Numbered from the stretch's first letter, positions 5,829 to 47,390 are shown. The stretch is 64,000 nucleotides of DNA from an uncultured Syntrophobacteraceae bacterium (GCA_964404195.1 CAYOJC010000007.1:16772-80771), one strand, 5' to 3'. Made by a program: numbers and translations. The notes: a model not told the origin generated them from the letters alone.

Positions 5829-6390
5829 TCCCCAGTTGACGCTCAAGAGATTCTTTTTCGATGAAGCTTCAGACGGTCGCCGGGCGATCGAGCAGAGCGG
5901 CGCCGGTCAACAGCTCTCTAAAGCGCTCGACAAAGTGCCGGCGTCATTGCGGGACAAGGCCAGGCAAGAGTTGGACACGAAGCTCGGGGAGGCTCTGGAC
6001 GTGGACCTGGTCCAGGTCCTGCTCGGAGGCTGGAATAAGTACCGGCAGCTACAACAATTTCGTGATCGTGCCAAGTACCCGAAGGACCAAATCTGTTTAC
6101 TCTCTCTCGCCAGCCACAGCATGAAGTCTTCCCACCGTATCACGTTTGAAATCGTGGCTGGGGAGGTCCCGCTGTTCCGGCTCGAGTTCGACGCCGTCGT
6201 GGCGCTGACGCTTGAAGGAATTGTGCTCAAGGTGCGCGACGCGCGGATCCGGGAGATCTCGAACGGGCGCTGCCGGGGCAAAGGGACGCTTCAGTTGAAG
6301 GGCACAGTGATCTTCGAAAAGGAGAGCCCGTACTTCGACCTTCCGGGTCGAATCGATCTCGGCGATGGGATCGAGATACCGGGGTCCTGA
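5821..6390 (+). CDS. Hypothetical protein, translationally coupled to the PKD-repeat protein
   Basis: The ATG at 5821 overlaps the upstream stop codon (ATGAGTGA). The ORF is 189 aa and I recognise no domain. Confidence 0.6.
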   Translation: MSDPQLTLKRFFFDEASDGRRAIEQSGAGQQLSKALDKVPASLRDKARQELDTKLGEALDVDLVQVLLGGWNKYRQLQQFRDRAKYPKDQICLLSLASHSMKSSHRITFEIVAGEVPLFRLEFDAVVALTLEGIVLKVRDARIREISNGRCRGKGTLQLKGTVIFEKESPYFDLPGRIDLGDGIEIPGS

Positions 6391-6430
6391 TTTAATATTC
6401 GATCAAGGTTCCACTACCCTTAAGTCGGGG

Positions 6431-6625
6431 TCAGGAGGCTTTTTTCGAGGGTTGAACGTTCTCCGGCCACCCTCCTCCGCCGTACTCCAGCCCGCGCTCG
6501 TAACCGTCGTGGAAGGACTTTTGACTGTATTCGTTCGGATAATCGGCGATGCCATTGCGCCGCAGGTCTTCGACTGCACGCTTGGCGTCGTTCAAAGTAG
6601 CAAAGATTCCTATGACGGGATTCAT
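6431..6625 (-). CDS. Small hypothetical protein (possible YflT-like stress-protein N-domain)
   Basis: 64-aa ORF. MNPVIGIFATLNDAKRAVEDLRRNGI resembles the general-stress YflT-type N-terminus. This is a weak call. Confidence 0.45.
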   Translation of the reverse strand: MNPVIGIFATLNDAKRAVEDLRRNGIADYPNEYSQKSFHDGYERGLEYGGGGWPENVQPSKKAS

Positions 6626-6707
6626 AAATTTTATTAACAGACGGCGAACCCCGCTCCAATCGGGGAAATCCCGCAGGAAGGTAAAGCGGGCAGGCTAACC
6701 TCCCGAG

Positions 6708-9725: not shown

Positions 9726-10201
9726 CGGGAAATTTTTCTCAGAGGAGTTTCGACGAAATCGTTTTTGGTATCCGCCCAGGCATAAGCGCAGATGCGCTTG
9801 ACGGCGCGGTCATAAATCGAGATGACGATTTGAGCCGTCTCGGGAAACGTAGGCTCGCCGAAGGGCATGGCGAACGCCTTATCTTCCTCGGAAAAGTAAG
9901 CCTCGTGCCCGGGATGGGAATGATAAAAAGCTTTGCTCTTGGCGCCGGCCGCCGTGGCTTCGTCGAGGGTTGCTTCCAACTCTTTGGGATCCATCGCGTA
10001 CGCGATCGTCGCCTCGCGCGGATAGGTTTCCGGGTCCAGCGCGTGAAGCTGATTCTGTATGTTCTTGAACCGCCGGACTTCTTCACGGCCGCCGTAATCC
10101 AGAACGACGCCGCAGCACTCTTCGGGAAAAGCATCGACGGCGTGGCGCGAAATCTCCGCCCAGGCGGATTCCGTCAAAGTGATTTCCGATGGAGATCTCA
10201 T
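9722..10201 (-). CDS. JAB/MPN (JAMM) metallopeptidase, Mov34/Mec+ family
   Basis: EECCGVV plus HSHPGHEAYFSEED gives the E...HxH...S..D JAMM motif. It overlaps the downstream hydrolase gene by 4 nt. Confidence 0.85.
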   Translation of the reverse strand: MRSPSEITLTESAWAEISRHAVDAFPEECCGVVLDYGGREEVRRFKNIQNQLHALDPETYPREATIAYAMDPKELEATLDEATAAGAKSKAFYHSHPGHEAYFSEEDKAFAMPFGEPTFPETAQIVISIYDRAVKRICAYAWADTKNDFVETPLRKISR

Positions 10202-10318
10202 GGGTCGTTCAGGAGATTATCACCGAAAATTCCTTTATCACAGCTTGACGCTGCGCGGGAGCATTTCGGTGCATGTTTGCCTCGGGTCGAGGCGGTAAAG
10301 AATCGGTCGGCAACAGAT

Positions 10319-10990
10319 TCAGTCGGACCGGCGAGCGTTTCTGTGGTAGTCGTGGTAGGTCGCAAGGACTCTTGTGGCGTATTCCAGCGGCACATCCGTC
10401 TCTTCCGCCAAATCGCTTTTGAGCCGGGTCGGGCCGCGATTGTAGGCCGTCAAGGCGAGCGTCAGGTCCTGAAAAATCCGCTGCAATGAATGAAGATAAA
10501 AGACCCCGAGCTTGATGTTGACGATCGGGTTGTCGAGATCGGGATCGTCATCGCTGAAGTGTTTGTCGGCTCGGTACGCGGACCTTCTCTGGTCGGCGAG
10601 ATCTTTGGCGAATTCGGGCTGGATCTGCATCAGCCCACGAGCCCCGTCCTCCGCGGCAGCAGTGTGCTGAAACCCGCTTTCAACCGTAATGATCGCGAGA
10701 ACGAGCAGCGGATCCAGTGCATGGCGCCGGCTTTCCGTCTGAACGGTCCTGGACAGGGACCAGACCGAATTGTCGTTGGCGTCGGCCATCTTTTTTTTGA
10801 CTACCGAGTAGATATTCAGCAACTCGGCGGCCTCATGGCCGTTCGTTCCGTACCGCTCGACCCAATGGGCGCTTCCCGGCTTGAATAGCTGGCCCGGCGC
10901 GAGCAGCACAACCGAATAGATAAGCCCAGTGGCAAGGATGGGGTTCCGCTTAAACCTCGGCAGGCGAAAGCTTTTATTGTTGAATTTCAT
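10319..10990 (-). CDS. Lytic transglycosylase (SLT domain)
   Basis: AIITVESGFQ...ARGLMQI...AYN motif series. The start is taken at the MKFNNKSF ATG (10990); the ORF stays open up to 11053. Confidence 0.8.
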   Translation of the reverse strand: MKFNNKSFRLPRFKRNPILATGLIYSVVLLAPGQLFKPGSAHWVERYGTNGHEAAELLNIYSVVKKKMADANDNSVWSLSRTVQTESRRHALDPLLVLAIITVESGFQHTAAAEDGARGLMQIQPEFAKDLADQRRSAYRADKHFSDDDPDLDNPIVNIKLGVFYLHSLQRIFQDLTLALTAYNRGPTRLKSDLAEETDVPLEYATRVLATYHDYHRNARRSD

Positions 10991-11092
10991 AAGGGGGAAA
11001 AGACCCTGGAGCAGGGGTTGAGCGTTTGGTTGGAGTAGGCTGAAGAATAACAAAGGGGTGTTTAATTGTCAAACGCGCGAGGAGAGAAAATA

Positions 11093-11134
11093 CAACTAAT
11101 AGATATAGCCTACGCGGAGGGATTCTATTAGTTG
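11093..11134. terminator. A/T-rich hairpin downstream of UbiD paralog 1
   Basis: Perfect 11-bp stem CAACTAATAGA (11093-11103) / TCTATTAGTTG (11124-11134) with a 20-nt loop. Its function (terminator or operator) is not established. Confidence 0.35.
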
Positions 11135-11179
11135 CAAATCGCGGGAGCGGCGCGATCGCTGAATAGACCGGCCAATTCG

Positions 11180-12613
11180 TCAGCGCGGCTTTCGCAGAAT
11201 GGGGCCCCATTTTTCGCGCACCTGCCGCTCGTATTCCGGCGTGAAGGTCATATGCTTGCCGAACTGCTCGATCCAGTCCCAGGGTTTGCAGGCGTCGATC
11301 AGCACCCGGCCGCAGGTCAGGTCCCACGATTCCCGCTTCTTCGGACTCATGATCGGATCGACGCGCGTGCTCACCGTGCCGCGCACGATGTCGATCTGCT
11401 CTTCGGGCAGGCAGCGCGTGGTCATGGCCCAGAGCACGTCGTTGAGATTCGACGGATCGATGTCTTCGTCAACCACGACGTAATACCGGTAGGCGCTGTT
11501 AGAGCCGCGGACGCCGACCGCCGTGAGCAGCGCCATCTTCGCATGGCCGGCAAAGGCCTGCTTGAGCGAGATGACGATGAAAAGCCCGTTGGCGTGCGCC
11601 CACACGCCGCGGATGCCGGGCAGCGCGCTTTTCTCCAGCGCGTCCCAGACCGCGATCGCGGCGTGCGTGATCGTGCCGACGCTGATATTGCGGTTGTTCT
11701 GATGCGGGCCGGTAAGGATCGGGTCGTTACGGTGATAGATCGCCTTGATCTTGATGACCGGCTGGGGATGCGGTTCCTGGCTGTAGTAGCCCGGCCATTC
11801 GCGGTACGGCCCTTCGGTGCGCGCGTCCTCTTCAGGCGGCGGCACTTCGCCTTCTATTGCAATTTCCGCCGCCGCCGGGATCGGGAGCCCGGTCATCTCG
11901 CCTTTGATGATATCGATCGGATGGCCCGCCATTCCTCCGGCGACCTCCAGCTCCGATTTTCCCCAGGGCGAGCTTCCCGTCGAGGCTTGAAACAATTCAA
12001 CCTGCTGGCCGTAGCAGGCGACCACGGGACACGCCTTGCCCTTGGCCCAATATTTTTTCGCGATGATCATCCCGTGATGATGGGGCTCGACGAAAAATCC
12101 CACGGTCTTCTCGTCGTGGATCATCTGCCGGTAAGTCCCCATGTTGACCCAGCCCTCGTCCGGGTCGCGGTTGATGACGAGCGTCGTCGTGCCGATGTAG
12201 CGGCCGCCTTCCAGCATGCGCCACTTGGGCGTGGGGAATTTTAAAATATTGACTTTGTCGCCGCGGTCCTGGTTCTCCAGGATCGGCCCCGAGGCGACTT
12301 CGCGCGGCGGAATGAGAACGGTTTCTTTTCGCTTTTCCTTCATCGCGCGCGCGATCTCCAGGTCGCTCAGGTCCATCGGAATGCCGAGCGCCAGCGCCTG
12401 CTTCTTAGGGTTGTTCTGAAGATTGGTAAGCGCGCGAAAGCCCGCCGGATATCCCGGGATCTTGTCGAAGATCAGCACCGGGTTGTCTTCGGTTTCCTGC
12501 ATCATCTGCGAGATTGCGCCGATCTCCAGGTCCCAATGCGCGCCCTCGACGACGCGCAGCATGCCGAGCTTGTCGAGCGCGTCGAGATAGTCTCTCAAAT
12601 CGCTGTATCCCAT
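11180..12613 (-). CDS. UbiD-family (prFMN-dependent) decarboxylase, paralog 1
   Basis: 477 aa. The N-terminus MGYSDLRDYLDALDKLGMLRVVEGAHWDLEIGAI is typical of UbiD/Fdc-like enzymes, and family-like similarity runs the full length. Confidence 0.9.
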   Translation of the reverse strand: MGYSDLRDYLDALDKLGMLRVVEGAHWDLEIGAISQMMQETEDNPVLIFDKIPGYPAGFRALTNLQNNPKKQALALGIPMDLSDLEIARAMKEKRKETVLIPPREVASGPILENQDRGDKVNILKFPTPKWRMLEGGRYIGTTTLVINRDPDEGWVNMGTYRQMIHDEKTVGFFVEPHHHGMIIAKKYWAKGKACPVVACYGQQVELFQASTGSSPWGKSELEVAGGMAGHPIDIIKGEMTGLPIPAAAEIAIEGEVPPPEEDARTEGPYREWPGYYSQEPHPQPVIKIKAIYHRNDPILTGPHQNNRNISVGTITHAAIAVWDALEKSALPGIRGVWAHANGLFIVISLKQAFAGHAKMALLTAVGVRGSNSAYRYYVVVDEDIDPSNLNDVLWAMTTRCLPEEQIDIVRGTVSTRVDPIMSPKKRESWDLTCGRVLIDACKPWDWIEQFGKHMTFTPEYERQVREKWGPILRKPR

Positions 12614-12628
12614 ACGGTCCTTTCTTAC

Positions 12629-12651
12629 AGGGCGTGATTAATCACGCCCCT
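12629..12651. repeat. REP-like palindrome GGGCGTGAT-TA-ATCACGCCC
   Basis: It has the same core as 8142-8169 and lies between the SBP and UbiD genes. Confidence 0.65.
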
Positions 12652-12664
12652 ACAAACATCTTGT

Positions 12665-13645
12665 TTAGGGTTTCCAGCCGCTTGCCTTCAGCTCGTCGTT
12701 CGCCTTGCGCACAAAGCTCAAGTCGAAGATGTCGCCGGTTTTAATGTCGCGCTGAACCTTCGTAGTTCTTTTCATATCGTCGACGATCGTTTGAAGAATC
12801 TTATCATCGCTGAAACCCTGCCGTAGAATCAGCTTGGATTCGATGTCATAGATCGCAATCGCCATCTCGCGGTCCGTCAACCTCAAAGCGTCCATCATAT
12901 ACTTGATCGCCGGCTCCCGTTTGCTGATGAAGAAATTTATTCCCTTGAGGCTCGCGCGGATGAATTTGAAAAGCTTCCCAGGGTTTTGTTTGATCTTTTC
13001 GTCCGACGTTGCCAATCCGCCTTGGACAAGATTGGCGAAATCACCGGCCGATGCCAGCTTGGTGAAGCCTTCCTTTTGCGCCTTGATGCTCGTCCCGGTG
13101 TTGAAGAGCGTTGCCTGAATCGCCTTGGCCTTCATCGCCGGAAAGCGCACTTCGTCTCCTCCCATCACGACGAGATTCAGATCTTTGACCGGATCCAACC
13201 CGTTTTGCTTCAAGATCTCCCTGGCAACGACGGCGAGCGAGCCTTCCGGAGACATGATTGCCACGTTGGTCCCGCGAAGTTGGGCCATCGATTTGATATT
13301 GGGCTGGGCGATGAGGTCCCATGAGGGCTTGTCTTGAAAGACCGCGAGGATTTTGACGGGAACTCCCCGGACCGCCGCCGCAAGGGCGCTGCCGGCATTG
13401 GTGAAGAAGTCGATCTCTCCCGCCAGCGCGATCCTGATGGCGATCTCGCCGCGGATGCTGAGCAACTCCACGTTGAGTCCTTCTTCACGCATATAGCCTT
13501 CCTTCTGCGCGATGATGAGGCAGTACGTCGAAGAATTCATCGAAGGATAGGCGACGCGGACATTTTCCGCCGCCGGGGCGGAGGAATGATTTAGCAGCAG
13601 GCAGAAGTAAATGAGAACGGCGAAGGGCAGGCGTTTGATGGGCAC
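12665..13645 (-). CDS. ABC transporter substrate-binding protein (NMT1/THI5-like, NitT/TauT family)
   Basis: 326 aa with a signal peptide. It resembles aliphatic sulfonate/nitrate/bicarbonate-type SBPs and matches the permease/ATPase type at 18073-19919. Confidence 0.8.
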   Translation of the reverse strand: MPIKRLPFAVLIYFCLLLNHSSAPAAENVRVAYPSMNSSTYCLIIAQKEGYMREEGLNVELLSIRGEIAIRIALAGEIDFFTNAGSALAAAVRGVPVKILAVFQDKPSWDLIAQPNIKSMAQLRGTNVAIMSPEGSLAVVAREILKQNGLDPVKDLNLVVMGGDEVRFPAMKAKAIQATLFNTGTSIKAQKEGFTKLASAGDFANLVQGGLATSDEKIKQNPGKLFKFIRASLKGINFFISKREPAIKYMMDALRLTDREMAIAIYDIESKLILRQGFSDDKILQTIVDDMKRTTKVQRDIKTGDIFDLSFVRKANDELKASGWKP

Positions 13646-13654
13646 TGAATTTCT

Positions 13655-13699
13655 CCCTCACCCCTTCCCTCTCCCGCTGGGAGAGGGCGAGGGTGAGGG
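13655..13699. repeat. G/C-rich palindromic REP-like element (second copy)
   Basis: ccctcaccccttccctctcccgctgggagagggcgagggtgaggg is self-complementary and belongs to the same family as 184-272. Confidence 0.7.
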
Positions 13700-13704
13700 T
13701 AAAG

Positions 13705-14925
13705 CTAGTCGATGACGCCTTCTTTTACCAGAGCTTCGTAATCCGAGCGGGACAATCCGAGCAAGTCGCAGTAGAAATATTCGTTGTGCTCGCCGAGCAG
13801 CGGATCGCGCTTGGTGGGGCCGGGCGGCGTTTTGCCGAGGAGAAACGGCGGCCGTTGGTAATGCATCTTGCCGATCTCGGGATGCTCCAGCTCGACCCAT
13901 TGCGGCCGCTGCTTAAGTTGAGGATCTTCGTAAACGTCGCACATCCGGTTGACGACTCCGGCTTTGACTCCGGCCTTCTGAAGTTTTTCCATTACATCGC
14001 GCGCCGTCAAGCTGCGAGTCCACTCGCCGATTTTAACGTCGAGCTCGTCTTCATTGGTCTTGCGGGCTGCGTGCGAAGAGAATTTTTTATTCGCGCTCCA
14101 AGCCGGATTTCCCATCACGCGGTACAGCGCCTTCCACTCCGCCTCTGTACTCACGCTGATAACGCACCACAGGTCGTCGCCTTTGCACGGGTAAGCGCCG
14201 TGCGGCGCGGCGTCGGGGTCGCGATTGGCGTTGCGCCCGGCGACCCTGCCATTCACTTTGTAATCCAAAAGAATCGGCGCCAGGTACTGGAGGCCGGTCT
14301 CGTATTGCGCCGTGTCGATATAATTGCCCTTGCCGGTGCGCCGCTTATAATCTAGCGCCGCAAGAATTGCGACGGCGCCGTACGCGACCGCGATGTAGTC
14401 GATGTAGGGGCCGTAGAGAATTTGTGGCGGGCCGTCCGGATAGCCCGTGAGATGCGTGAATCCCGCCAGCGACGAGAGCTGCGAGCCGAACCCGGCGTGA
14501 TGCGCGTGCGGTCCGCTCTGCCCGAGGTTCGAGCTCGAGAGCATGATGAGATCGGGCTTAACTTTCTTCAAATCCTCGTAGCCGAGTCCAAGACGCCCCA
14601 TCGTGCCGGGACTGAAATTTTCGATCACGACGTCCGCCCAGGCGACGATATTTTTCGCCAGCTCGGTGGCCTTCGGCGTTTTCTTGAGATTGATCGTGAT
14701 GTCGAGCTTGTCGTTGTTGCACAGGGCGAAAAGCCCCGAGCGATTGAGGCCGTGAATGTTGTCTTTGTACGGCGGATAGTGCGCGCGGAACCCGTCCGGC
14801 CGCACCTTCGATTCTATGTGAACGACCGTCGCGCCGTGATCGGCCAGATGCTTGCCGACTACCGGCCCGGCGGCGAACGCGGCGAACTCGACGATCTTAA
14901 CGCCCTTCAAAGACTGCACGTTCAA
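13705..14925 (-). CDS. Family III CoA-transferase (CaiB/BaiF type), subunit B candidate
   Basis: 406 aa. The N-terminus LKGVKIVEFAAFAAGPVVGKHLADHGATVVHIE is typical of class III CoA-transferases. It overlaps the upstream paralog by 4 nt. Confidence 0.9.
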   Translation of the reverse strand: MNVQSLKGVKIVEFAAFAAGPVVGKHLADHGATVVHIESKVRPDGFRAHYPPYKDNIHGLNRSGLFALCNNDKLDITINLKKTPKATELAKNIVAWADVVIENFSPGTMGRLGLGYEDLKKVKPDLIMLSSSNLGQSGPHAHHAGFGSQLSSLAGFTHLTGYPDGPPQILYGPYIDYIAVAYGAVAILAALDYKRRTGKGNYIDTAQYETGLQYLAPILLDYKVNGRVAGRNANRDPDAAPHGAYPCKGDDLWCVISVSTEAEWKALYRVMGNPAWSANKKFSSHAARKTNEDELDVKIGEWTRSLTARDVMEKLQKAGVKAGVVNRMCDVYEDPQLKQRPQWVELEHPEIGKMHYQRPPFLLGKTPPGPTKRDPLLGEHNEYFYCDLLGLSRSDYEALVKEGVID

Positions 14926-19142: not shown

Positions 19143-19919
19143 GTGGCCTACGTCAGCGTTAATCGCGCGGTGAAGTATTTTTCGCGCGAAGACGGCTCGG
19201 AGATGCTGGTGCTGAACGGCGTCTCGTTCGAAGCCAGAGAGCACGGCATTACCGCGCTGCTGGGGCCGTCGGGCTGCGGCAAGTCCACGCTGCTCAACGC
19301 CATCGCCGGGCTGGAGAAATTGGATGGCGGCGAAATCGAGTTTCGAAAGGCGCACGAGGGCTCGAAGGCGCGCGACCCGAGACTGGGTTATGTCTTCCAA
19401 GACCCGCGGCTCCTCAACTGGAAGCGCGTGGAGGGGAATCTTACCTTCGCGCTGAAAGGCATGAAGATTCCTCGCAACGAGTGGGAGCGGCGTCTGGTTA
19501 AATATCTCGACCTGGTCGGCCTCGGCGAATTTCGCCGGCAGTACCCGCTCTATCTTTCCGGCGGCATGCGCCAACGCGTCGACCTCACGCGGGCTCTCGC
19601 CGTCGAGCCGGAACTGCTCTTAATGGACGAGCCTTTCAGCAAGCTCGACCAGTTGACCTCCCGCAAGCTGCGCCAGGACGCGGTCGCGATCTGCGCGCGC
19701 CTCGAGCAGACCGCGATTCTCGTCACGCACGACGTGGAGGAGGCGGCTTATATGGGCGACCGGATCGTGATCTTCTCCGCCCGCCCCGCGCGTATCGTCG
19801 AGGTCGTGGACAATCCGCTGGCGCTCGCCGAGCGCGACTTCGACGATCTGAAGTTCATTCAATTCAAGAACAAGCTGTTGAATACCGTGCTGAAACTCGT
19901 GGATCAGGAGGGAACATGA
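19143..19919 (+). CDS. ABC transporter ATP-binding protein (NitT/TauT family)
   Basis: Walker A GPSGCGKST, signature LSGGMRQR, Walker B LLLMDEPFS. GTG start. Confidence 0.92.
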   Translation: MAYVSVNRAVKYFSREDGSEMLVLNGVSFEAREHGITALLGPSGCGKSTLLNAIAGLEKLDGGEIEFRKAHEGSKARDPRLGYVFQDPRLLNWKRVEGNLTFALKGMKIPRNEWERRLVKYLDLVGLGEFRRQYPLYLSGGMRQRVDLTRALAVEPELLLMDEPFSKLDQLTSRKLRQDAVAICARLEQTAILVTHDVEEAAYMGDRIVIFSARPARIVEVVDNPLALAERDFDDLKFIQFKNKLLNTVLKLVDQEGT

Positions 19920-20935
19920 AGAAGGCATTAGGCAACAGGCAACAGGCAATAGCAAAAACAATCTGTGCGGTCGCTTGCGTTGTCGTCGCGATGATTGCGC
20001 TGGTGACAGGCAAACAAATCAATGCCGCGGAGTTGCCGACGATCGAGGTCGGGTTGCCGGACGACGGGCTGTTCGGTTTGGGCGGCCAATATATTTTGGA
20101 CAAAGGACTCGACAAAAAGAATGGCTTCGTGATGAAGCCGCGCTGGGCCGGCGTGCCGGAGATTCAGCGGCTGCTCGGCATCAAAGCGATTTCCGTCGGG
20201 CTGATGACGCCGGAAGCCGGTCTCCGCGCGAACGTCGCCGGTGTTCCGATACGCCTCCTGCAGCCGTACCAGACGAGCCATATGTATGTCCTGGTGCGAA
20301 AGGATTCTCCGTATAACTCGGTGGAAGATCTCAAAGGCAAACCGGTTGCGCTCACTTCGGAAGTCACGACGCTCTACAACCTTTTCGACTTCATGATGCG
20401 GAAGCGCGGCATGAACGTCGAAAAAGATTTTCAACTCAAGAAACTCGCCGCTCCGGTGATCATCGCGGTTTTGGAAAAAGGCGATGTGGAAGCCGGCCTT
20501 CTCTGGGAAGCGCACATCTCGCGTCTGCTCACGAGTGGAAAATACAAAACGATCCTGGGCTTTCGCGACGAGCTGTCGCGCCTGCTCAACGTCAAGGTCA
20601 TGCCGGTGGTCTGGCTCGCCGGTCTCGAACCATGGGTGAAAGAAAACGCGGCGCTCGTCCCCAAGCTGCGCGCCGCGTGGACCGAAGCGTATCGCGGGCT
20701 GCAGAACGACGAAGCGCATTTCAAAAAATACGCCAAGCAGTTCTTCGGACTGGAGAAACCCGAGGAGCTGGCCGCCGCCTGGCCGCGCACCAAAATATTT
20801 TTGCTTCCATCTGATTTTACCTGGCCCGAGGCGGCCACGCTGAAAGCGCAAAAGAGCTGGCTCCGAGAAGGCGTCGAGATGGGAATGTTTCCCAAAGAGG
20901 CAGAGAGTTTGATCGACGGGATGTACGCGCCGTAG
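19916..20935 (+). CDS. ABC transporter substrate-binding protein (NMT1-like)
   Basis: Signal peptide. ATGA start/stop overlap with the ATPase gene. NMT1/SsuA-like length and composition. Codons 4-13 are encoded by a GGCAACA heptamer tract. Confidence 0.8.
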   Translation: MKKALGNRQQAIAKTICAVACVVVAMIALVTGKQINAAELPTIEVGLPDDGLFGLGGQYILDKGLDKKNGFVMKPRWAGVPEIQRLLGIKAISVGLMTPEAGLRANVAGVPIRLLQPYQTSHMYVLVRKDSPYNSVEDLKGKPVALTSEVTTLYNLFDFMMRKRGMNVEKDFQLKKLAAPVIIAVLEKGDVEAGLLWEAHISRLLTSGKYKTILGFRDELSRLLNVKVMPVVWLAGLEPWVKENAALVPKLRAAWTEAYRGLQNDEAHFKKYAKQFFGLEKPEELAAAWPRTKIFLLPSDFTWPEAATLKAQKSWLREGVEMGMFPKEAESLIDGMYAP

Positions 20936-20992
20936 AGCGGCAGCGTGAACGATTAAGTGCTCTAACGGAAAAAGAATGGCGAGAGACTCGCT

Positions 20993-21616
20993 ATGAACTG
21001 CTCATCCAGTCGCAATCTCTTGCTCCTTATTTTCTGCTGCACTTTTCTCTCATGTATAGGGTGTGGAGCCTTGACGGAGATCAGCATCACGGACACGCAG
21101 TTCAAGAGTTCGATTATCGCAACGAACGACGAGGAAGATTTCAGAGGATTTTTCTTCGACTCTTCGGACGTGCTGATACCGCGTGATTACCTGGCCGATA
21201 CGTGGGAGAATCACGTCGGCAGCTCGATTCGAATCGTGGAAGGAAAGCATCGGGTCCTCTTCATAGATCTGTTCAAAAATCCGGTGCCGGGCATGATCGA
21301 CGAGGAGTTCGGCTATAAGCTGTTAATTCAATTCTCTCCCGACTCGGACAAAGACGCGATTTATTTTTCGGACTCATCGGATAGCAGCACGGCGATTGCC
21401 CATTACTTCCACTTCGGCCCGGGTTCCGTTCACTGCTGGTGGACCCAGCCGGTGGGTAAAATCGATTTGCGGAGGACCTCTTCAGATACGCTCGATGGGG
21501 AATTGAACCTGACTTTCCTTGCTGAATCTTCCACGAAACTGTGCCAGGGCCGTTCCGTCTCATTTCGCGGCAAGTTCTCTGTGCCAAAGCGAAGCGATAG
21601 GAAGCTCTTCCGGTGA
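20993..21616 (+). CDS. Hypothetical lipoprotein
   Basis: The N-terminus LLLLIFCCTFLSCIGCG is lipobox-like. It lies in a low-G+C region and I recognise no family. Confidence 0.55.
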   Translation: MNCSSSRNLLLLIFCCTFLSCIGCGALTEISITDTQFKSSIIATNDEEDFRGFFFDSSDVLIPRDYLADTWENHVGSSIRIVEGKHRVLFIDLFKNPVPGMIDEEFGYKLLIQFSPDSDKDAIYFSDSSDSSTAIAHYFHFGPGSVHCWWTQPVGKIDLRRTSSDTLDGELNLTFLAESSTKLCQGRSVSFRGKFSVPKRSDRKLFR

Positions 21617-21694
21617 GCAAATGTTGAACCTACCATCTGTCCCGACGGCTGCTACGATGAAAGTACAGAAGTTTTTGAGCAATAAAATTAACGG

Positions 21695-22123
21695 ATGAAC
21701 GATCGAGTGATAGAGCCGGACGGGAGCCAGGACTTTGGGCCGTGCGAGTGCTGCGGCGACAACAGCCGCACCGTCTGGGGATTGGTTCACCGAGATAACT
21801 GCACGGAGGCTGCTTACTTCGTACACTGGTCGCTCGGCAAGGTCGCCGACAAGGGCGCGTATATCGACCTCATCCTTGGGCCCTGGGGTGAGGGAACCGA
21901 CCGAGCCGATCGGTACGCAGTCTCGCTGGAATTTCGCCAGGGATTCGGAGTCAAAATTATTGATGCCAGCGTACGAAATATTGCGCGTCATAGCATGGTG
22001 GGGCGAGGGCTGGTGCGAGAGGACGTCGTTATGACGCCACTGGCTCAGGAAGTCTTTGAGATCCTGGATTTCATCTGGGTACAGGATGGGCGCATCGCAG
22101 AAGTGACGGGAGAAGTCCCTTAA
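21695..22123 (+). CDS. Hypothetical protein with N-terminal CxCC motif
   Basis: 142-aa ORF (GPCECCGDNSRTVWG...). The antisense ORF 21560..22237 was judged less protein-like. Confidence 0.5.
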   Translation: MNDRVIEPDGSQDFGPCECCGDNSRTVWGLVHRDNCTEAAYFVHWSLGKVADKGAYIDLILGPWGEGTDRADRYAVSLEFRQGFGVKIIDASVRNIARHSMVGRGLVREDVVMTPLAQEVFEILDFIWVQDGRIAEVTGEVP

Positions 22124-22191
22124 CTTTGTGAGCATATTATCAAGATTCAAGACTTGATTCTGAAAGACTTGTGGGCTAACCGAGTCGAAAC

Positions 22192-23217
22192 ATGCGATAC
22201 GACGAAAACGATATTGATTTCTCAACGCTTGATCCATCGGTCTTCGAAGAACTGTGCTTTGATCTTTTAATCCGTTTGGGGTTTCAAGAACTCCAGTGGC
22301 GCCGGGCAGGTGCGGACAGTGGTCGCGACATTGAAGGCAAATGGCTGGTTCAGTTGCCTATTATCGGTGCCTCTCAAGAGACTTGGGCTATCGAGTGTAA
22401 GCACTATTCTCGTGGCGTTCCGCCCGATGCTTTGTCATCAAAGTTTTCCTGGGCCGACGCAGAAAGACCAGATCGTCTGCTGATATTTGTGAGCTCGCAT
22501 TTGACGAACGGTGCAAGAGACTGGCTCTCGAAACGTAAGAAGCAGGTGTCTTACCGGGTGCACGTTGTCGAAGGCAAGACGCTCCGCCAGCAACTGATCG
22601 CTTACGATGAGTTGGTTGAGCGCTACTTTGGCGGCCGATACGCCCGTCTATTAAGTCAGGCATTTGAGTCGTGGGCTCTTCATGGACTCATTCCATCCCT
22701 CGAGACACTTGGCATCTTGCTAAACCACATAGACCCAACGAAGCTAACGATCGACGAGGTCGCATTCCTATGGTGTGTTCGGCTCTTCAGGAAGGACGAA
22801 ATCCATAGTTGGGAGGAGGGCGAAGAAAAGACTTTTCCGGGAAGCGTTCTTTTAGATCAGTTAAGTGCAAGTACGAACATGTGCGCGAGCGTAATCGATC
22901 CATACCACAGCGTGATCTTTCATGGGACTTCAATATCGAGCACGGGGCGTCTCACCGAGGATGAGAGCAAGCAGGACCATTCCTATTTCGCGGAGATCCT
23001 GGTAGACCGCGGCCAAGGCCCACGGATTGCACTGTACGCTTATCATGCCTCCGGCACTGGGAGTGGCTGCGAAGTTCTTGTAGTCGCTGGTGCACGTCCA
23101 GAGGCATCAGTACGTTATCTGCAAACCAACGCCTACGTAGCATTCAGGCAGACTGAAGCGCTTATGTTGGAGCGGTATTCTGCAAGATCTCGACGAACTG
23201 ATGTCCGAGAAACGTAA
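22192..23217 (+). CDS. Mrr-like PD-(D/E)xK restriction-endonuclease-domain protein with an unknown C-terminal half
   Basis: FEELCFDLLIRLGF...GADSGRDIEG...WAIECKHY matches Mrr_cat-type D...ExK architecture. I do not recognise the ~190 C-terminal residues. Confidence 0.65.
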   Translation: MRYDENDIDFSTLDPSVFEELCFDLLIRLGFQELQWRRAGADSGRDIEGKWLVQLPIIGASQETWAIECKHYSRGVPPDALSSKFSWADAERPDRLLIFVSSHLTNGARDWLSKRKKQVSYRVHVVEGKTLRQQLIAYDELVERYFGGRYARLLSQAFESWALHGLIPSLETLGILLNHIDPTKLTIDEVAFLWCVRLFRKDEIHSWEEGEEKTFPGSVLLDQLSASTNMCASVIDPYHSVIFHGTSISSTGRLTEDESKQDHSYFAEILVDRGQGPRIALYAYHASGTGSGCEVLVVAGARPEASVRYLQTNAYVAFRQTEALMLERYSARSRRTDVRET

Positions 23218-23310
23218 ATGGGGACAGAGAACATGAAGGAGGACTTTACTGATCATTTGCGCTTCAGCCTGTCACCATAAGCGTCCTTGTCTGAGTCTGA
23301 GTGTCGGAGC

Positions 23311-23502
23311 CTATTTTGGCAGAAAATCTTCCAACCTAACCGTCTCCCAACCCATCGGCTTCAATCTTTCGAACGGCATGCGCGCTTCTTTGCCGGCGCA
23401 CAGCGGCGGCGTGGTCGCGTCGATAATCACCTTGCCGCCGACGCGGTGCCAGTACTGTCCGCCGGGAGGGATGGGCTCGTCGCCGGTCGGGTCTATCGGA
23501 TG
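23311..23502 (-). pseudogene. Displaced 3' fragment (63 codons plus TAG) of the UbiD paralog 3 gene, copy C
   Basis: My translation gives HPIDPTGDEPIPPGGQYWHRVGGKVIIDATTPPLCAGKEARMPFERLKPMGWETVRLEDFLPK*. The intact gene ends ...HPMDPTGDEPIPPGGQYWHRVGGKVIIDATKPPLCAGKEARLPFERLKPMGWETVRLEDFLPK*. Confidence 0.85.
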
Positions 23503-23575
23503 GGCCGAAGAAAATGTACCGGGAGTCTTTTCTGCTCCCGCTTATCCCGCGCGCCATTAGACGCCTTAACTCACT

Positions 23576-23589
23576 TCATGTATACATGA
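23576..23589. promoter_or_regulatory. Perfect 14-bp palindrome, candidate TA operator
   Basis: TCATGTATACATGA lies 4 nt upstream of the GTG start of the DUF4258 gene. Confidence 0.4.
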
Positions 23590-23592
23590 GTT

Positions 23593-23934
23593 GTGGCCGA
23601 GCGTAAGCTCCCGGACGATCCTACATCATTCATCCGTGACTGCCTTCACGGTGGCCGGATTTTGTGGACGTACCATGTCAACATGCGCTTGGGACGGAGG
23701 TTCATCGCCCGCGAGACGATTATCTTGGCCGCCGACAGCTACGAAATTGTCGAGGCCTACCCGGAGGACAAATACTTTCCGAGTTATCTGCTCCTTGGCC
23801 GACAGGGCGAGGAGACGTTTCATGTGCTGTTTGGAGCCGATGTAGATGGTCAGAACGTTCGACTTGTCACGGCATATTATCCCAGCCCCGAGGAGTGGGA
23901 AATCGATTTGAAAACACGAAGGAGGTCCTCATGA
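23593..23934 (+). CDS. DUF4258-domain toxin-like protein
   Basis: ILWTYHVNMRLGRRFIARETI...IVEAYPEDKYFPSYLLLG....ETFHVLF......VRLVTAYYP matches the DUF4258 pattern as I recall it. Confidence 0.75.
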   Translation: MAERKLPDDPTSFIRDCLHGGRILWTYHVNMRLGRRFIARETIILAADSYEIVEAYPEDKYFPSYLLLGRQGEETFHVLFGADVDGQNVRLVTAYYPSPEEWEIDLKTRRRSS

Positions 23935-24152
23935 AGTGCACGGTTTGTGGCGCCGGTATGAATCGGATCAAGACCGACCTGCCGTTTAAGTTGTCGGAAG
24001 ACCGCATTGTCATCTTCAAGCAACTGCCGGTCTTGCAGTGTAAAGCGTGCCGCGAATATCTGATTGAGGATGCTGTTATGGCGCGCATCGACACTTTGCT
24101 TAGGCAGGCAGACAGTACGGCTGAACTCGAAGTGATCCGCTACGCCGCGTGA
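23931..24152 (+). CDS. YgiT-type zinc-finger (MqsA-family) antitoxin-like protein
   Basis: MKCTVCG...VLQCKACREYLI gives two CxxC pairs. ATGA overlap with the DUF4258 gene. Confidence 0.75.
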   Translation: MKCTVCGAGMNRIKTDLPFKLSEDRIVIFKQLPVLQCKACREYLIEDAVMARIDTLLRQADSTAELEVIRYAA

Positions 24153-24158
24153 GAGCCC

Positions 24159-24313
24159 TCACTTCGGCAAAAAATCTTCCAACCTCACCGTCTCCCACCC
24201 CATCGGCTTTAATCGCTCGAACGGCAGACGCGCTTCTTTGCCGGCGCAGAGAGGCGGCTTGGTCGCATCGATGATTACTTTGCCGCCGACGCGATGCCAG
24301 TACGGTCCGCCGG
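24159..24313 (-). pseudogene. Displaced 3' fragment (about 50 codons plus TGA) of the UbiD paralog 3 gene, copy B
   Basis: It encodes ...GGPYWHRVGGKVIIDATKPPLCAGKEARLPFERLKPMGWETVRLEDFLPK*, identical to the intact gene end except for one residue at the junction. ORF 24159..24485 is a chimera of this fragment with unrelated sequence. Confidence 0.85.
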
Positions 24314-24357
24314 AGCTTTTTCTTGCTAAATGGGGTTTTGCCAGGCACAATCGCGGC

Positions 24358-24549
24358 ATGACAAAAATGTCGCGAGTTCCGTCCAGGAAGGCTGAGTCAC
24401 GTTTCTCGGATGGACTTAGACCCGAGTACAAGAGGTCGGACTTCGGTGAGATAGTTCGCGGACAATACGCGCGACGCGTAAGCAAAGCGACAAACGTTAT
24501 CGTCCTTGATCCGAAAATGGCAAAGGCGTTTCCGAACGAGGGAAGATGA
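24358..24549 (+). CDS. Small antitoxin-like ORF (uncertain)
   Basis: 63 aa. EYKRSDFGEIVRGQYARRV...NVIVLDPKMAKAFPNE resembles a motif I associate with small TA antitoxins. It appears C-terminally short. Confidence 0.35.
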   Translation: MTKMSRVPSRKAESRFSDGLRPEYKRSDFGEIVRGQYARRVSKATNVIVLDPKMAKAFPNEGR

Positions 24550-24654
24550 TAAGGGAACAGTCCCTTTTTCAGCCTTCTACAGTCTGGTCAGGCGTGCGAT
24601 GAGCACCGAGGTCTGCTATACTTACGAGTAGCTCTGGAGCATCGGAGGTGTGAA

Positions 24655-24876
24655 ATGAGCAAGATCATAGAAGCAGTTTTCGACGGAAAGGTACTTCGTC
24701 CCAAAGACGCACTCACGCTTGAGCCGAATACTCGCGTGCGGATTACAATCGAACCCGTAGAGCCAATTGCCAAAGGGGACGTTTCATTTCTGGATACCGC
24801 CCTATCACTGAAGTTGGATGGCCCGCACGATTGGGCGGTGAAAATTGGGCGCTCATGTGACTGTCCACGACTATGA
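24655..24876 (+). CDS. DUF104 (AF2212-like) antitoxin-family protein
   Basis: MSKIIEAVFDGKVLRPKDALTLEPNTRVRITIEP is the typical DUF104 N-terminal beta-domain. Confidence 0.6.
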   Translation: MSKIIEAVFDGKVLRPKDALTLEPNTRVRITIEPVEPIAKGDVSFLDTALSLKLDGPHDWAVKIGRSCDCPRL

Positions 24877-24921
24877 TCCCGAAATATATGAACCGGATCA
24901 CAGGACAAGGAGAAAAACAAA

Positions 24922-25152
24922 ATGAAATGCGTGTTTTGTAAGCAGGGCAAGACCCACCCTCAGAAAGTGACGGTCGAGCGTCACAACCAGGCTGGTGAGC
25001 CGATTGCGGTCATCCATAACTTTCCTGCCGAGGTTTGCGAGGTCTGTGGGGAAGAATACTATTCAGCGAAGGACTGGCAGAAAGCCGAGCGCTTGCTTGC
25101 CAAGTCTCCTATCAAGGTGACTAGAGTGCCGGTCTATGAGCTGCATCCGTAA
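24922..25152 (+). CDS. YgiT-type zinc-finger protein (MqsA-like, no HTH)
   Basis: MKCVFCKQG...AEVCEVCGEEYY gives two CxxC pairs. 76 aa. Confidence 0.7.
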   Translation: MKCVFCKQGKTHPQKVTVERHNQAGEPIAVIHNFPAEVCEVCGEEYYSAKDWQKAERLLAKSPIKVTRVPVYELHP

Positions 25153-25179
25153 GAAAACGGTCTAGCGCTACCCTCACCC

Positions 25180-26568
25180 TCACTTCGGCAAAAAATCTTC
25201 CAACCTGACCGTCTCCCAACCCATCGGCTTTAACCTTTCAAACGGTAGCCGCGCTTCTTTGCCGGCGCAGAGGGGCGGCTTGGTCGCGTCGATGATGACC
25301 TTGCCGCCGACGCGATGCCAGTACTGTCCGCCGGGGGGAATGGGCTCGTCGCCGGTCGGGTCCATCGGGTGAATGCGCGTGCCGGGGATGATGACCATGT
25401 CTTCCTGCGGGTTGCAGCGCGTGTTGATCGCCCACAAAACTTCCCAGTAATTAAAAATATTCACGTCCTCGTCGACCGCAATCGCGATCTTCGGATGGAG
25501 AATCGGGCTCGACAGCACGCCCATCAAAACTTGCTTGGCCTCGCCGTAAAAGCGCGGCGTCATCTGCACGACGATGCCGAAGAGTCCGGGCAGAACCAAC
25601 AGGTTGTGCAGGTTGACGTAGCCGCCGATGTGTCGGATGTGGTTGTAGACCGCGACGCCGAACGGTACTTTGTGAAAGATGCAGCCTTCGACCTCCGAGC
25701 CGTTCTGAATCGCCTTGAAGATGGCGTCGTGGCGCATGGTGATGCAGTCGATCTCGATCACCGGATTTTTTCCCATGCCCGCGACGTAGTAGTCGTGGAA
25801 CTCGGAGAACGGCCCTTCCTCCTCGCGCACATTCGGCAGTATTCTTCCCTCCAAAACGATCTCCGCGTCGTACGGAACTTCCAGATCGTTGGTCTCGCAC
25901 TTGACGACTTTCGCCGGCTCGCCGATGAGCCCGCCGGCCAGCTCCAGCTCGTCCATCTCGAACGGCCCCGTGGTGGCGGCGGCCATGTAATATAAAGGAT
26001 GGTGGCCGATGAAGATCGCCACCGGCGTCGGCTCGTTCCGCTCCTCGTGCTTCGTGAGAATGGCCCGCGTGTGGCGCGGGACGATGAGCGCGCCGGTCTT
26101 GCGCGGTCCTTTGATTTGCAAGCGATGAAAAGCGACGTTGCGCACACCCGTGTCCGGGTCGCGCGCCACCAGCAGGCCCGACGCTATATAAGGAGTCTCC
26201 TCGCTGCCCGCGACATGCGCGGGAAGCTTAGTGAGATCGACCTGATCGCCCTTCAAAATAATTTCCTTTACCGGTCCGGTCGAGACTAGTTCCGTCGGTT
26301 GCCGCTTGAGCGCGCGCTCCGCTGCGGTGGGAATTAGCTTCTCGACCGTCGTGCCGTAGGCCAGCGCGGCGTGGCGCAGGTTCGCGGGCGCCATGCCGAG
26401 GCTTTTCCACTTCGGGAATCCCGCCACGTTTTCGAACAACAGCGCTTTCTCCCTCGACTGGTAGAGCAGCGCGCCCATCTGCGTGTGCGGATGAACGGGC
26501 TTGGTGATGTGAATCAGCTCTCCCGCAGTCTCAAGTTCTTGAATCCACGTGCGCATGTCCTTGGGCAT
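25180..26568 (-). CDS. UbiD-family (prFMN-dependent) decarboxylase, paralog 3 (intact)
   Basis: 462 aa. The N-terminus MPKDMRTWIQELETAGELIHITKPVHPHTQMGAL is typical of UbiD. Its last ~63 codons recur at 24159-24313 and 23311-23502. Confidence 0.9.
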   Translation of the reverse strand: MPKDMRTWIQELETAGELIHITKPVHPHTQMGALLYQSREKALLFENVAGFPKWKSLGMAPANLRHAALAYGTTVEKLIPTAAERALKRQPTELVSTGPVKEIILKGDQVDLTKLPAHVAGSEETPYIASGLLVARDPDTGVRNVAFHRLQIKGPRKTGALIVPRHTRAILTKHEERNEPTPVAIFIGHHPLYYMAAATTGPFEMDELELAGGLIGEPAKVVKCETNDLEVPYDAEIVLEGRILPNVREEEGPFSEFHDYYVAGMGKNPVIEIDCITMRHDAIFKAIQNGSEVEGCIFHKVPFGVAVYNHIRHIGGYVNLHNLLVLPGLFGIVVQMTPRFYGEAKQVLMGVLSSPILHPKIAIAVDEDVNIFNYWEVLWAINTRCNPQEDMVIIPGTRIHPMDPTGDEPIPPGGQYWHRVGGKVIIDATKPPLCAGKEARLPFERLKPMGWETVRLEDFLPK

Positions 26569-32664: not shown

Positions 32665-32786
32665 CCGATGATTCATCGACCTTAAAAACTTCGTGACCTT
32701 CGTGCTCTTCGTGGTGATAAGCTTTTTGACCACGAAGGACACGAAGCACACGAAGAAAGAACCTGCCCTGAGCGAAGCCGAAGGGC
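32665..32786. repeat. CTTCGTG/CACGAAG nonamer hairpin element plus GAGCGAAGCCGAAGG module
   Basis: ttcgtgaccttcgtgctcttcgtggtgataagctttttgaccacgaaggacacgaagcacacgaag is nearly identical to the cores at 38268-38350 (reverse) and 47266-47318. Confidence 0.8.
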
Positions 32787-38216: not shown

Positions 38217-38443
38217 GTTAGCTCGGATAATTCGCAGTTAAACATCCTCTCCGTAGGATACGTCTTCTTCCCCTGCGCCTCTTCCTTCGTGTGCTTCGTG
38301 TCCTTCGTGGTCAAAAAGTTTATCACCACGAAGAGCACGAAGGTCACGAAGTTTTTTAGTCCTCGCGCCAAGACGCAAAGAACGCTTTCCTTATCTAGAG
38401 TGTGTCGCAATCCTTCCTCGGTTGATGAGTAATCCAGGCCGGA
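38217..38443. mobile_element. 227-bp modular MITE-like repeat filling the ATPase-permease intergenic gap (short copy, reverse orientation)
   Basis: Its reverse complement is colinear with 46955-47057 plus 47267-47390. All modules are shared: gcctggatta.tcatc, gacacact.tagat.aggaaagcgttcttt, gcgcgagga.taaaaaac, the CTTCGTG hairpin, and cggagaggatgtttaac.g.gaattatcc. Confidence 0.85.
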
Positions 38444-46954: not shown

Positions 46955-47390
46955 AGCCTGGATTATTCATCGACCGAAAAAAGATCGTGACACACTTAGA
47001 TGAGGAAAGCGTTCTTTAAGTCTTGCGCGAGGATTAAAAAACTTCGTGACCTTCGTAATACTATGCCTGTAAGTTTTCGCGGTTTGCGCAAATTTTCTTG
47101 CGCACCGATCCTAAGTTGCGGAATCGACAAGAAAATACGATCTCACCACGAAGCACACGAAGGCCACGAAGGATTCGTATATTTTATACTTTTGAACTTC
47201 GTGCTCTTCGTGACCTTCGTGGTGAAATGTCTGTTTCTGCTTTGGTTGCGGCGTAGCCGCGCTAGGCTCTTCGTGGTGATAAACTTTTTGACCACGAAGG
47301 ACACGAAGCACACGAAGGAAGAGGCGCAAAGGAACAAGGCGTATCCCCTACGGAGAGGATGTTTAACGGTGAATTATCCCGGGTAGCTCG
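46955..47390. mobile_element. Modular MITE-like repeat, long copy carrying a ~205-bp nested insertion
   Basis: It is colinear with the reverse complement of 38217-38443, except for extra DNA at about 47058-47266 inserted inside the CTTCGTG tract. That insert contains its own CACGAAG/CTTCGTG hairpin (47146-47222). Confidence 0.8.

Follow-up and report, generated by a model that had tools for sequence, protein, structure and literature searches.

How do toxin–antitoxin (TA) operons of less than 1 kb come to be stacked behind a protein-coding gene, with a further copy of that gene's 3' end at the far side of each? The question is raised by a 64,000-nt stretch of DNA from an uncultured Syntrophobacteraceae bacterium (GCA_964404195.1, CAYOJC010000007.1:16772-80771; hereafter the window, in which all positions are counted). 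An intact gene of the UbiD family (prFMN-dependent decarboxylases; 25180-26568, minus strand, 462 aa; Pfam UbiD_N/UbiD/UbiD_C, and NCBIfam TIGR00148 above cut-off) is followed there by two more copies of its own end and by TA genes between the copies. As detailed below, this arrangement can be classed as serial accretion targeted to a gene end, with bare TA operons as the units: the window lineage took up 4.2 kb stepwise, and at least two of the steps left a truncated, dead UbiD end behind a minimal TA operon.

Repeat finding in the window gave one family of three direct copies (23315-23502, 24163-24350 and 25184-25371), and no comparable repeat lies beside any other gene of the 64 kb. Copy C is the last 192 nt of the intact gene (25180-25371, stop codon TGA at 25180-25182), whereas copies B (24159-24313, TGA at 24159-24161) and A (23311-23502, TAG at 23311-23313) are 5'-truncated dead UbiD 3' ends, which in a gapped alignment start at –154 and –191 from the stop, respectively, and reach their own stops, all three being on the minus strand; homology ceases 0-3 nt past the stop codon. 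The first-pass annotation had described three UbiD 3' ends in the same orientation, each beginning at its own stop, and repeat finding, blastn and alignment all agree with it. By blastn the copies are 89.9% (A-C, 188 nt), 91.8% (B-C, 158 nt) and 88.1% (A-B, 151 nt) identical, and their differences are mostly at third codon positions (19 of 25, 11 of 14 and 15 of 22, in the same order). An independently assembled Logan contig (L001, 12.8 kb, SRR6868923) is 100% identical to the window over 10.7 kb, all three copies included.

Two segments separate the copies, one of 656 nt (23503-24158) and the other of 866 nt (24314-25179). The shorter one contains a DUF4258 toxin gene (23593-23934, plus strand; Pfam PF14076, E 1e-13) and a YgiT-finger antitoxin gene (23931-24152, plus strand; TIGR03831, E 1e-8, above cut-off), which overlap by 4 nt (23931-23934) and, together with an integron-type cassette start, TTAGACGC, at 23557, make up cassette 1 (23557-24152, plus strand; Pfam and NCBIfam matches). 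Only 6 nt lie between the end of the antitoxin gene and the stop of copy B. With two small overlapping genes and predicted toxin and antitoxin domains, the pair has the layout of a type II TA system. In the longer segment, a second YgiT-type zinc-finger antitoxin gene, belonging to cassette 2 (24922-25152, plus strand, 76 aa; TIGR03831, E 2e-11), is convergent with UbiD at a stop-to-stop distance of 27 nt. It is preceded by the remnant of its DUF4258 toxin gene, namely the last 22 codons (24857-24922) and the stop (24857-24924, plus strand, identified by tblastn with the relatives' toxin). This remnant was missed in the first-pass annotation; in relatives the toxin is whole (111 aa), and its residues 90-111 match the window remnant at 100% in tblastn. 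The same segment includes a gene for an AF2212-like (formerly DUF104) small protein (24655-24876, plus strand; Pfam PF01954, E 7e-9) and a 62/63-aa open reading frame (ORF; 24361-24549, plus strand) whose start is 45 nt away from the 5' edge of copy B. AF2212-like proteins we take to be, in their usual role, antitoxin partners of PIN toxins; no toxin gene lies downstream of the one in the window. The earlier description of both segments as holding only small TA genes finds support in the DUF4258, YgiT and AF2212-like matches but not in the ORF at 24361-24549, termed antitoxin-like at the time, which has zero Pfam or NCBIfam matches and was not called as a gene in L001. A scan of 23200-25400 for promoter and terminator consensus sequences returned nothing.

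The history of the site can be read from its relatives. From 126 fetched loci encoding UbiD relatives, gene ends were sought with the last 70 UbiD residues; about 70 loci are orthologous and belong to Binatia, and 158 loci were fetched overall (numbered with the prefix L). Full-length UbiD orthologues in Binatia metagenome-assembled genomes (MAGs) are 84-98% identical. The conserved neighbour of UbiD is a convergent gene for an NMT1-type substrate-binding protein (19916-20935, plus strand in the window). Empty sites, which it had been proposed to seek in relatives, were found: the UbiD stop lies only 2-4 nt from the NMT1-gene stop in L039 and L099 and 54 nt from it in L065, the spacer being 121 nt in L010, and the spacer reaches 4,248 nt in the window and 7,922 nt in L052. 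Since the spacer is of a few nucleotides in relatives, 20936-25179 of the window, delimited by this comparison of spacer lengths, represents inserted DNA in a hypervariable hot spot; the GC content of this island is below that of its flanks. In Candidatus Binatia, therefore, the tiny spacer between the convergent UbiD and NMT1-type genes is an insertion hot spot, made by nothing beyond two convergent genes with almost no spacer. At the empty site of L039 (5541-6700), the UbiD orthologue may be a pseudogene, as it matches the window gene in three blastn pieces (5541-6157, 6160-6522 and 6524-6699) and part of the window gene is left unmatched.

In most of the orthologous loci there is a single UbiD gene end. 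Two ends are present in L002, L003, L004, L041 (= L118), L051, L079 and L109, all of them one-cassette sites, and apparently in L050, while three ends are present in L009 and in the window; extra gene ends occur in eight distinct relatives, and six different TA cassettes are involved. The serial accretion with variable occupancy that had been postulated is thus seen in the relatives as empty, one-cassette and three-copy sites of differing content, and the alternative of an ancient fixed duplication without change of occupancy is contradicted by the 0, 1 or 2 cassettes found among them. Cassette 2, that is, the second DUF4258/YgiT pair, is followed by a 126-nt fragment in six loci, and its YgiT gene adjoins the UbiD stop in L002, L009, L041, L051, L079 and L109. 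The other contents are a DUF6036-type nucleotidyltransferase pair (L003), a helix-turn-helix (HTH)/MqsA-like gene (L004), a ParE pair (L050, L052 and L053) and a Phd-type gene (L009). All cassettes are convergent with UbiD and have their promoter side facing the truncated fragment. In L052 and L053 the ParE cassette is a plain insertion with no UbiD fragment, which makes this state a candidate for that of the donor. Other contexts of the cassettes private to the window were sought by contig look-up, which gave the window locus itself.

Two further occupied sites deserve a description of their own. In L050, a 99-nt repeat, 100% identical between 4850-4948 and 5683-5781 and covering –51 to +47 nt around the UbiD stop, lies at the contig end; it is either a fresh tandem duplication of a unit made of gene end and ParE cassette or an effect of the assembly end. 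In L063, a 5S-rRNA-like gene with a weak Rfam score (29.7 bits, under the gathering threshold) is found in the UbiD-NMT1 hot spot (10120-14090). Its 3' part recurs there in three 5'-truncated copies, of which two have a terminator hairpin; they stand between TA cassettes of the PIN, RelE and other types, and all of them break at one base (…CTGGAGGGCT).

The order in which the units arrived can be deduced at two sites. In L002, the DNA beyond the truncated copy is that found beyond the intact stop in L106, a relative that lacks TA cassettes, so that the fragment rests on the native flank. Behind the second copy of L003 lies cassette 2, which adjoins the intact gene in six other loci, and a different cassette with a fresh gene end has been placed in front, which implies that new units enter beside the intact gene and displace the older ones outwards. 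As for the window, homology to cassette 2 breaks at 24856, inside the toxin gene, in the comparison with all cassette-2 loci, and a deletion probably fused the cassette-2 unit to a unit of the AF2212 type, whose gene is confined to the window locus among the 158 fetched loci.

Are the additional gene ends decayed duplicates of the resident gene? Eight fragments were set against a consensus built from 33 distinct functional UbiD ends. The great majority of their differences from it (166 of 179; 129 synonymous, 37 not) occur also in functional alleles, and the 13 that are private to the fragments comprise 2 synonymous and 11 non-synonymous changes, a stop codon in L002 among the latter; in functional ends, the private changes are 21 synonymous and 8 non-synonymous. 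Copies A and B of the window have two and one private substitutions, respectively. Co-resident copies are 8-14% apart along their whole length, which is the distance found between lineages. Because the differences are mostly variants of functional genes elsewhere, the copies derive from different alleles and not from a duplication that decayed in place; by these counts the fragments are real alleles silenced recently, with about 1% of private decay. The proposal that the insertions bring a replacement gene end is in keeping with this, the copies being different, formerly functional alleles. Finding different alleles around a cassette means either that the cassette came with a foreign end or that one copy was overwritten later. 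Similarity of gene body and gene end is discordant, with 97.6% identity in the body and 92.1% in the last 125 nt between the window and L079, and 87.8% and 94.4%, respectively, between L002 and L004; together with the clustering of mismatches, this points to frequent homologous exchange. Over its last 84-90 nt, fragment 2 of L009 is almost the same as the functional end resident at that locus. Two ideas were tried and abandoned: no linkage was found between a particular end allele and cassette 2, and a choice of the native copy by comparison with the closest relative, L079, was blurred by recombination patches.

UbiD is not the only gene at which these cassettes occur. Other contigs contain close homologues of cassette 1, with toxins 79-95% identical. 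One such cassette, with a toxin 92% identical, lies in L129 and L130 (same MAG as L003), where it is convergent with a glyoxalase gene and is bracketed by about 240 nt of the glyoxalase 3' end, in copies 80% identical; in L129 these copies differ at 50 sites, 36 of them in third codon positions, and the fragment has a frameshift. About 500 nt away from this duplication, in L129 (3140-4213), a TrmI/GCD14 methyltransferase gene also has its final 119 nt in two copies (96% identity; 5 differences, all synonymous at third positions), and the 836 nt inserted between them contain two ORFs, one of 62 aa and one of 123 aa (weak DUF3969). The occurrence of the same cassette family at the glyoxalase end, along with the separate duplication at TrmI, implies that the UbiD end is not the fixed attachment site of these elements, as had been supposed. 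Members of the cassette-2 toxin family in other genomes or phyla (L146-L157) showed no gene-end repeats.

Homologues of cassette 1 are also found in textbook integron arrays (L136, L132, L137 and L139-L144), where they begin G|TTAGACGC and end with an attC site starting GCGTCTAAC, and where 95-nt sites with RYYYAAC and GTTRRRY cores lie between adjacent cassettes. A degenerate attC persists in L129, its G|TT crossover point overlapping the glyoxalase stop codon. In the window, cassette 1 starts CCA|TTAGAC, with the same TTAGAC as the array homologues, and no attC and no R''/R' core pair were found in 20900-25400. Cassette 1 is, then, an integron cassette by descent and not by its structure in the window, and integron cassette arrays are its ultimate source; here an integron-type cassette lives outside an integron. 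Terminal inverted repeats of cassette 1, initially considered as transposon ends, proved to be the integron cassette start and the attC start. Among the homologous contigs, L136 (660-2860, a Binatia MAG contig) carries an integron-type array of HicAB, HicA-HTH and DUF4258-YgiT cassettes with attC sites of about 95 nt, the last of which is interrupted by a transposase-like gene, and no intI lies on the stretch examined. In L135 (4960-5600), a cassette-1 homologue is wedged exactly between the stops of glmS and of a convergent HpaB gene, with about 39 nt of truncated attC before the HpaB stop and no duplication.

The junctions themselves and the surrounding genes were searched for signs of an enzyme. 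Boundaries of the UbiD fragments fall at four positions, –191, –154/–155, –133 and –126 (fragment lengths of 126-191 nt), and have no shared core motif or inverted-repeat core. The G|TT crossover of integrons, looked for at each fragment junction, fits the cassette-2 junction alone, and inspection of the junctions by eye only gave no dif-like site. A process sensing the stop codon was considered for the exact end of the repeats and dropped, because with a native spacer of 2-65 nt any insertion between the two genes falls at the stop. In agreement with the first-pass annotation, there is no tRNA anywhere in the 64-kb window, and no recombinase family is represented among the ORFs of 19916-26568. 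Nor was a recombinase found in the hot-spot ORFs of ten relatives bounded on both sides, or among the 25 most frequent of the 99 families (single-member families not listed) in 126 downstream ORFs. The island has no intI, a gene for which no systematic search of the 64-kb window was made, and no mimic of the UbiD end, as peptide or invariant 20-mer, was found in the 2.9 million viral contigs of IMG/VR. As in integrative elements of gene 3' ends, direct repeats of the target end flank the insert and the gene is intact; a recombinase encoded by the insert itself, or by a tandem partner sharing the site, was not found.

The account to which we give most weight, while rating it somewhat short of an even chance, is a recombinase-free, homology-anchored import of these units from other lineages, with an illegitimate far joint in the recipient's gene end and retention of the insert through TA addiction. 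Donor DNA from another Binatia lineage would arrive with a TA cassette already placed directly after its UbiD stop. On one side it would be joined by homologous recombination within the UbiD gene, and its far end, which lacks homology and lies immediately upstream of the TA promoter, would be joined illegitimately, either by homology-facilitated illegitimate recombination, in which this joint is expected at a 3-10-nt microhomology between donor and recipient, or by the equivalent single-crossover integration of a circularised fragment. The product would consist of gene body, donor end, cassette, truncated recipient end and old flank, and repeated rounds would push older units outwards. Viable joints would lie mostly inside the recipient's gene end: the stop of the neighbouring gene is 2-65 nt away and a joint there destroys the neighbour, but one within the recipient's own end does no harm, the donor supplying a complete replacement. 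The direct repeats would allow the insert to be looped out, an event that is counter-selected when it means the loss of a TA module, which would explain why there are essentially only TA genes between the repeats. Decay of the toxin would then open the way to erosion of the unit, as in the cassette-2 remnant of the window. The lack of a recombinase and of a viral mimic in the searches described, the scattered, motif-free boundaries, the mosaic genes and the fact that the copies are alleles all fit such a recombinase-free route.

Several observations weigh against this account. All fragments are of 119-242 nt, while the model itself does not forbid longer ones. The glyoxalase copies, 20% divergent, have no identical run of more than about 15 nt, so that the homologous crossover would have to be placed further inside the gene or the allele to have been replaced later. 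We know of no competence or other DNA-uptake route in Binatia. Two units, those with the 63-aa ORF of the window and with the HTH gene of L004, are without a recognisable toxin, and addiction cannot hold them now. The truncated 5S-rRNA-like copies of L063 break at one base, and three independent junctions, with different cassettes and neighbours, coincide at –154/–155, which random illegitimate joining does not predict. A wider proposal, possible and held with less confidence than the import account, is that minimal TA operons spread between related genomes without a recombinase of their own. One-sided, homology-anchored recombination would capture them where convergent genes end and would duplicate the gene's 3' end; the operons would then be held by addiction in an otherwise unstable duplication, and provided by the repeats with portable homology for further stacking and shuffling, as in an "integron without an integrase".

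It is the coincidence at –154/–155 that keeps a trans-acting site-specific recombinase under consideration, and this is the main rival, although an unlikely one. The units would be sub-kb, non-autonomous elements carrying a mimic of the target 3' end as attachment site, and a tyrosine or serine recombinase encoded elsewhere would cross over at the 5' edge of the mimic. Such an enzyme would account for the three coinciding junctions, for the break at the same base in the three L063 copies that flank TA cassettes and, having no requirement for homology, more easily for the 20%-divergent glyoxalase copies; the architecture too is that of integrase-mediated 3'-end integration, with a replacement end differing synonymously and the displaced native fragment by the native flank. 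It is harder to reconcile with the absence of a recombinase from the island and from the ten hot spots bounded on both sides, with at least four boundaries at one gene and no inverted-repeat core shared among them, and with the association of one cassette lineage with two unrelated gene ends. No attP-like copy was found in the viral contigs, and no intact parent element is present at the site in about 70 loci.

The remaining explanations, namely in-place duplication, decayed islands, direct action of an integron integrase and assembly error, are less likely than a trans-acting recombinase. A duplication of the gene end in place, through template switching, tandem duplication of gene end plus cassette or fill-in of a staggered break, followed by replacement of cassettes and alleles by homologous recombination, is improbable. 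It would leave near-identical pairs, whereas all eight well-defined UbiD pairs are 8-14% apart with fragments about 1% private, and each different cassette would still need a separate mechanism to bring it. The second copy in L050, 100% identical over 99 nt including 47 nt past the stop, does look like a fresh tandem duplication, but it lies against the contig end and could have arisen in assembly. The near-identity of L009 fragment 2 to the resident end points to gene conversion within the array, and the mosaic genes attest to the frequent allelic replacement that the scheme needs.

Less probable again is a derivation from larger, integrase-bearing islands or prophages inserted at the UbiD 3' end and deleted down to a TA module that cannot be lost. 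TA modules are indeed common in islands and would survive last, with att-like repeats being retained; yet six different units would each have had to shrink to a promoter and an operon, leaving 6-120 nt on either side, no residual integrase, structural-gene fragment or intact parent is present at the site in about 70 loci, and cassette 1 is bounded as in integron arrays and not as part of an island. We consider it just as doubtful that an integron integrase acting in trans inserted the cassettes by an attC x genomic attG reaction, the repeats being a by-product. In its favour, cassette 1 is a bona fide integron cassette by its start (G|TTAGAC), by the attC that begins GCGTCTAAC and by its presence in arrays, one of them on a Binatia contig; the degenerate attC of L129 ends G|TTA on the glyoxalase stop codon; and cassettes can integrate at genomic attG sites (PMC12614218). 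The window island, however, has no attC and no R''/R' core pair, its cassette 1 ends 6 nt past the stop codon, G|TT is found at the cassette-2 junction and at none of the other fragment junctions, and the known reaction duplicates no 120-240 nt of the target. Finally, the sequence does come from metagenome assembly of short reads, but a chimeric path through strain variants sharing the gene end can be set aside with near certainty. A second assembler produced the same 10.7 kb, identical runs common to the copies do not exceed about 30 nt, the truncated copies have defined junctions to unique cassette DNA, which strain hopping in homologous sequence cannot make, and similar arrays exist in MAGs from unrelated projects.

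The rest of the island and of the window adds some features. Between copy A and a 142-aa cysteine-rich ORF without family match (21695-22123) sits a gene for an Mrr-type restriction endonuclease (22192-23217, plus strand; Pfam Mrr_cat, E 2e-10) with no gene-end repeat visible around it. Its GC content is 47-53% versus about 60% in the flanks, it is restricted to the window lineage among the fetched loci, and in L002, L004 and L106, which lack it, the gene end or fragment runs straight into the 142-aa ORF; the Mrr gene is an additional insertion private to the window lineage. The 142-aa ORF is kept directly after the UbiD end or the last fragment in many Binatia loci (L002, L004, L008, L009, L041, L106 and L109). 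A 207-aa ORF (20993-21616) belongs to the island as well. Elsewhere in the window, a 57-nt repeat family rich in CACGAAG/CTTCGTG (32704-32760, 38300-38356 and 47266-47322) is predicted to form a long hairpin as single-stranded DNA (–15.1 kcal/mol, z –4.35) and has the look of repetitive extragenic palindromes (REP) or miniature inverted-repeat transposable elements (MITE). At 3921-5828, a 635-aa protein, predicted to be secreted or membrane-bound, has four internal repeats of about 115-150 aa (…QGxxAxFxSxT…SFSVNT…PGxYxVxLxV…), which underlie 240-nt DNA repeats at 4044-5091.

The locus and its approximately 70 relatives make up a natural series of empty sites, simple insertions, one to three stacked units and eroded units, and the variable number of cassettes (0, 1 or 2) at one spot is a live footprint of recombinase-less addiction modules entering genomes. 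In the literature, coverage of which was incomplete, no description was met of TA cassettes bracketed by long duplications of host-gene ends, and we know of no report of a natural serial footprint that combines gene-end duplication with TA cargo. Several known systems share part of the picture. In E. coli, the integrases of e14 and phage 21 insert these elements into the 3' end of a protein gene, icd, for which the element brings a replacement end, and, as there, the UbiD site has a host body with a foreign end, differences that are mostly synonymous and a displaced native end of 100-200 nt by the native flank. Those elements are kilobases long, with their own integrase and one fixed crossover core; by contrast, the UbiD units have 0.65-0.87 kb, only TA genes, several boundaries and no recombinase seen. 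Tandem accretion is known from ICESt1, an integrative and conjugative element (ICE), and cis-mobilisable elements (CIME) at the 3' end of fda in Streptococcus thermophilus. Serial stacking at one gene end, direct repeats of that end between the units and the lack of a recombinase in some units are common to both cases. CIME, however, have short identical att sites of tens of bp and are deletion derivatives of an ICE of the same species, whereas the repeats at UbiD are of 126-191 nt and allelic, the cargo is TA genes only and, unlike the CIME setting, no ICE or integrase was found at the UbiD array. The pdif modules of Acinetobacter plasmids, small, often consisting of TA pairs, devoid of a recombinase and bounded by repeated sites as the UbiD units are, depend on 28-bp XerC/XerD sites in inverted pairs and are moved by the host enzyme.

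Integron cassettes are similar in that they are sub-kb units of promoter plus operon, without a recombinase of their own and often with TA genes, in repeat-separated arrays that grow by entry at one end. They are different in that the repeats at UbiD are pieces of a protein gene instead of attC hairpins, and the island has no attC, attI or intI. Cassettes are also known to insert outside integrons, at attG sites (Loot et al., 2024, cited through PMC12614218). Homology-facilitated illegitimate recombination is RecA-dependent and is established in three transformable species (de Vries & Wackernagel, 2002; Prudhomme, 2002; Meier & Wackernagel, 2003; summarised in PMC6382021). It offers one homologous anchor, one illegitimate joint and no dedicated recombinase, as proposed for UbiD, and the mosaic UbiD gene body is compatible with it. 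It is described from laboratory selections and usually deletes recipient DNA, whereas the window would represent a natural, serial footprint. Another parallel is given by the chromosomal TA hot spots of E. coli, such as relA-mazG and folA-apaH with ccdO157 (PMC7167474), where particular intergenic positions likewise hold TA operons and, in related strains, have no insert or a different one; that review describes no gene-end duplications or arrays, and it states that how TA systems integrate is unknown (PMC7167474). With its exact junctions and datable fragments, the UbiD hot spot makes this question of TA entry testable, and homology-anchored capture, if true, would explain in concrete and testable terms how chromosomal TA modules move.

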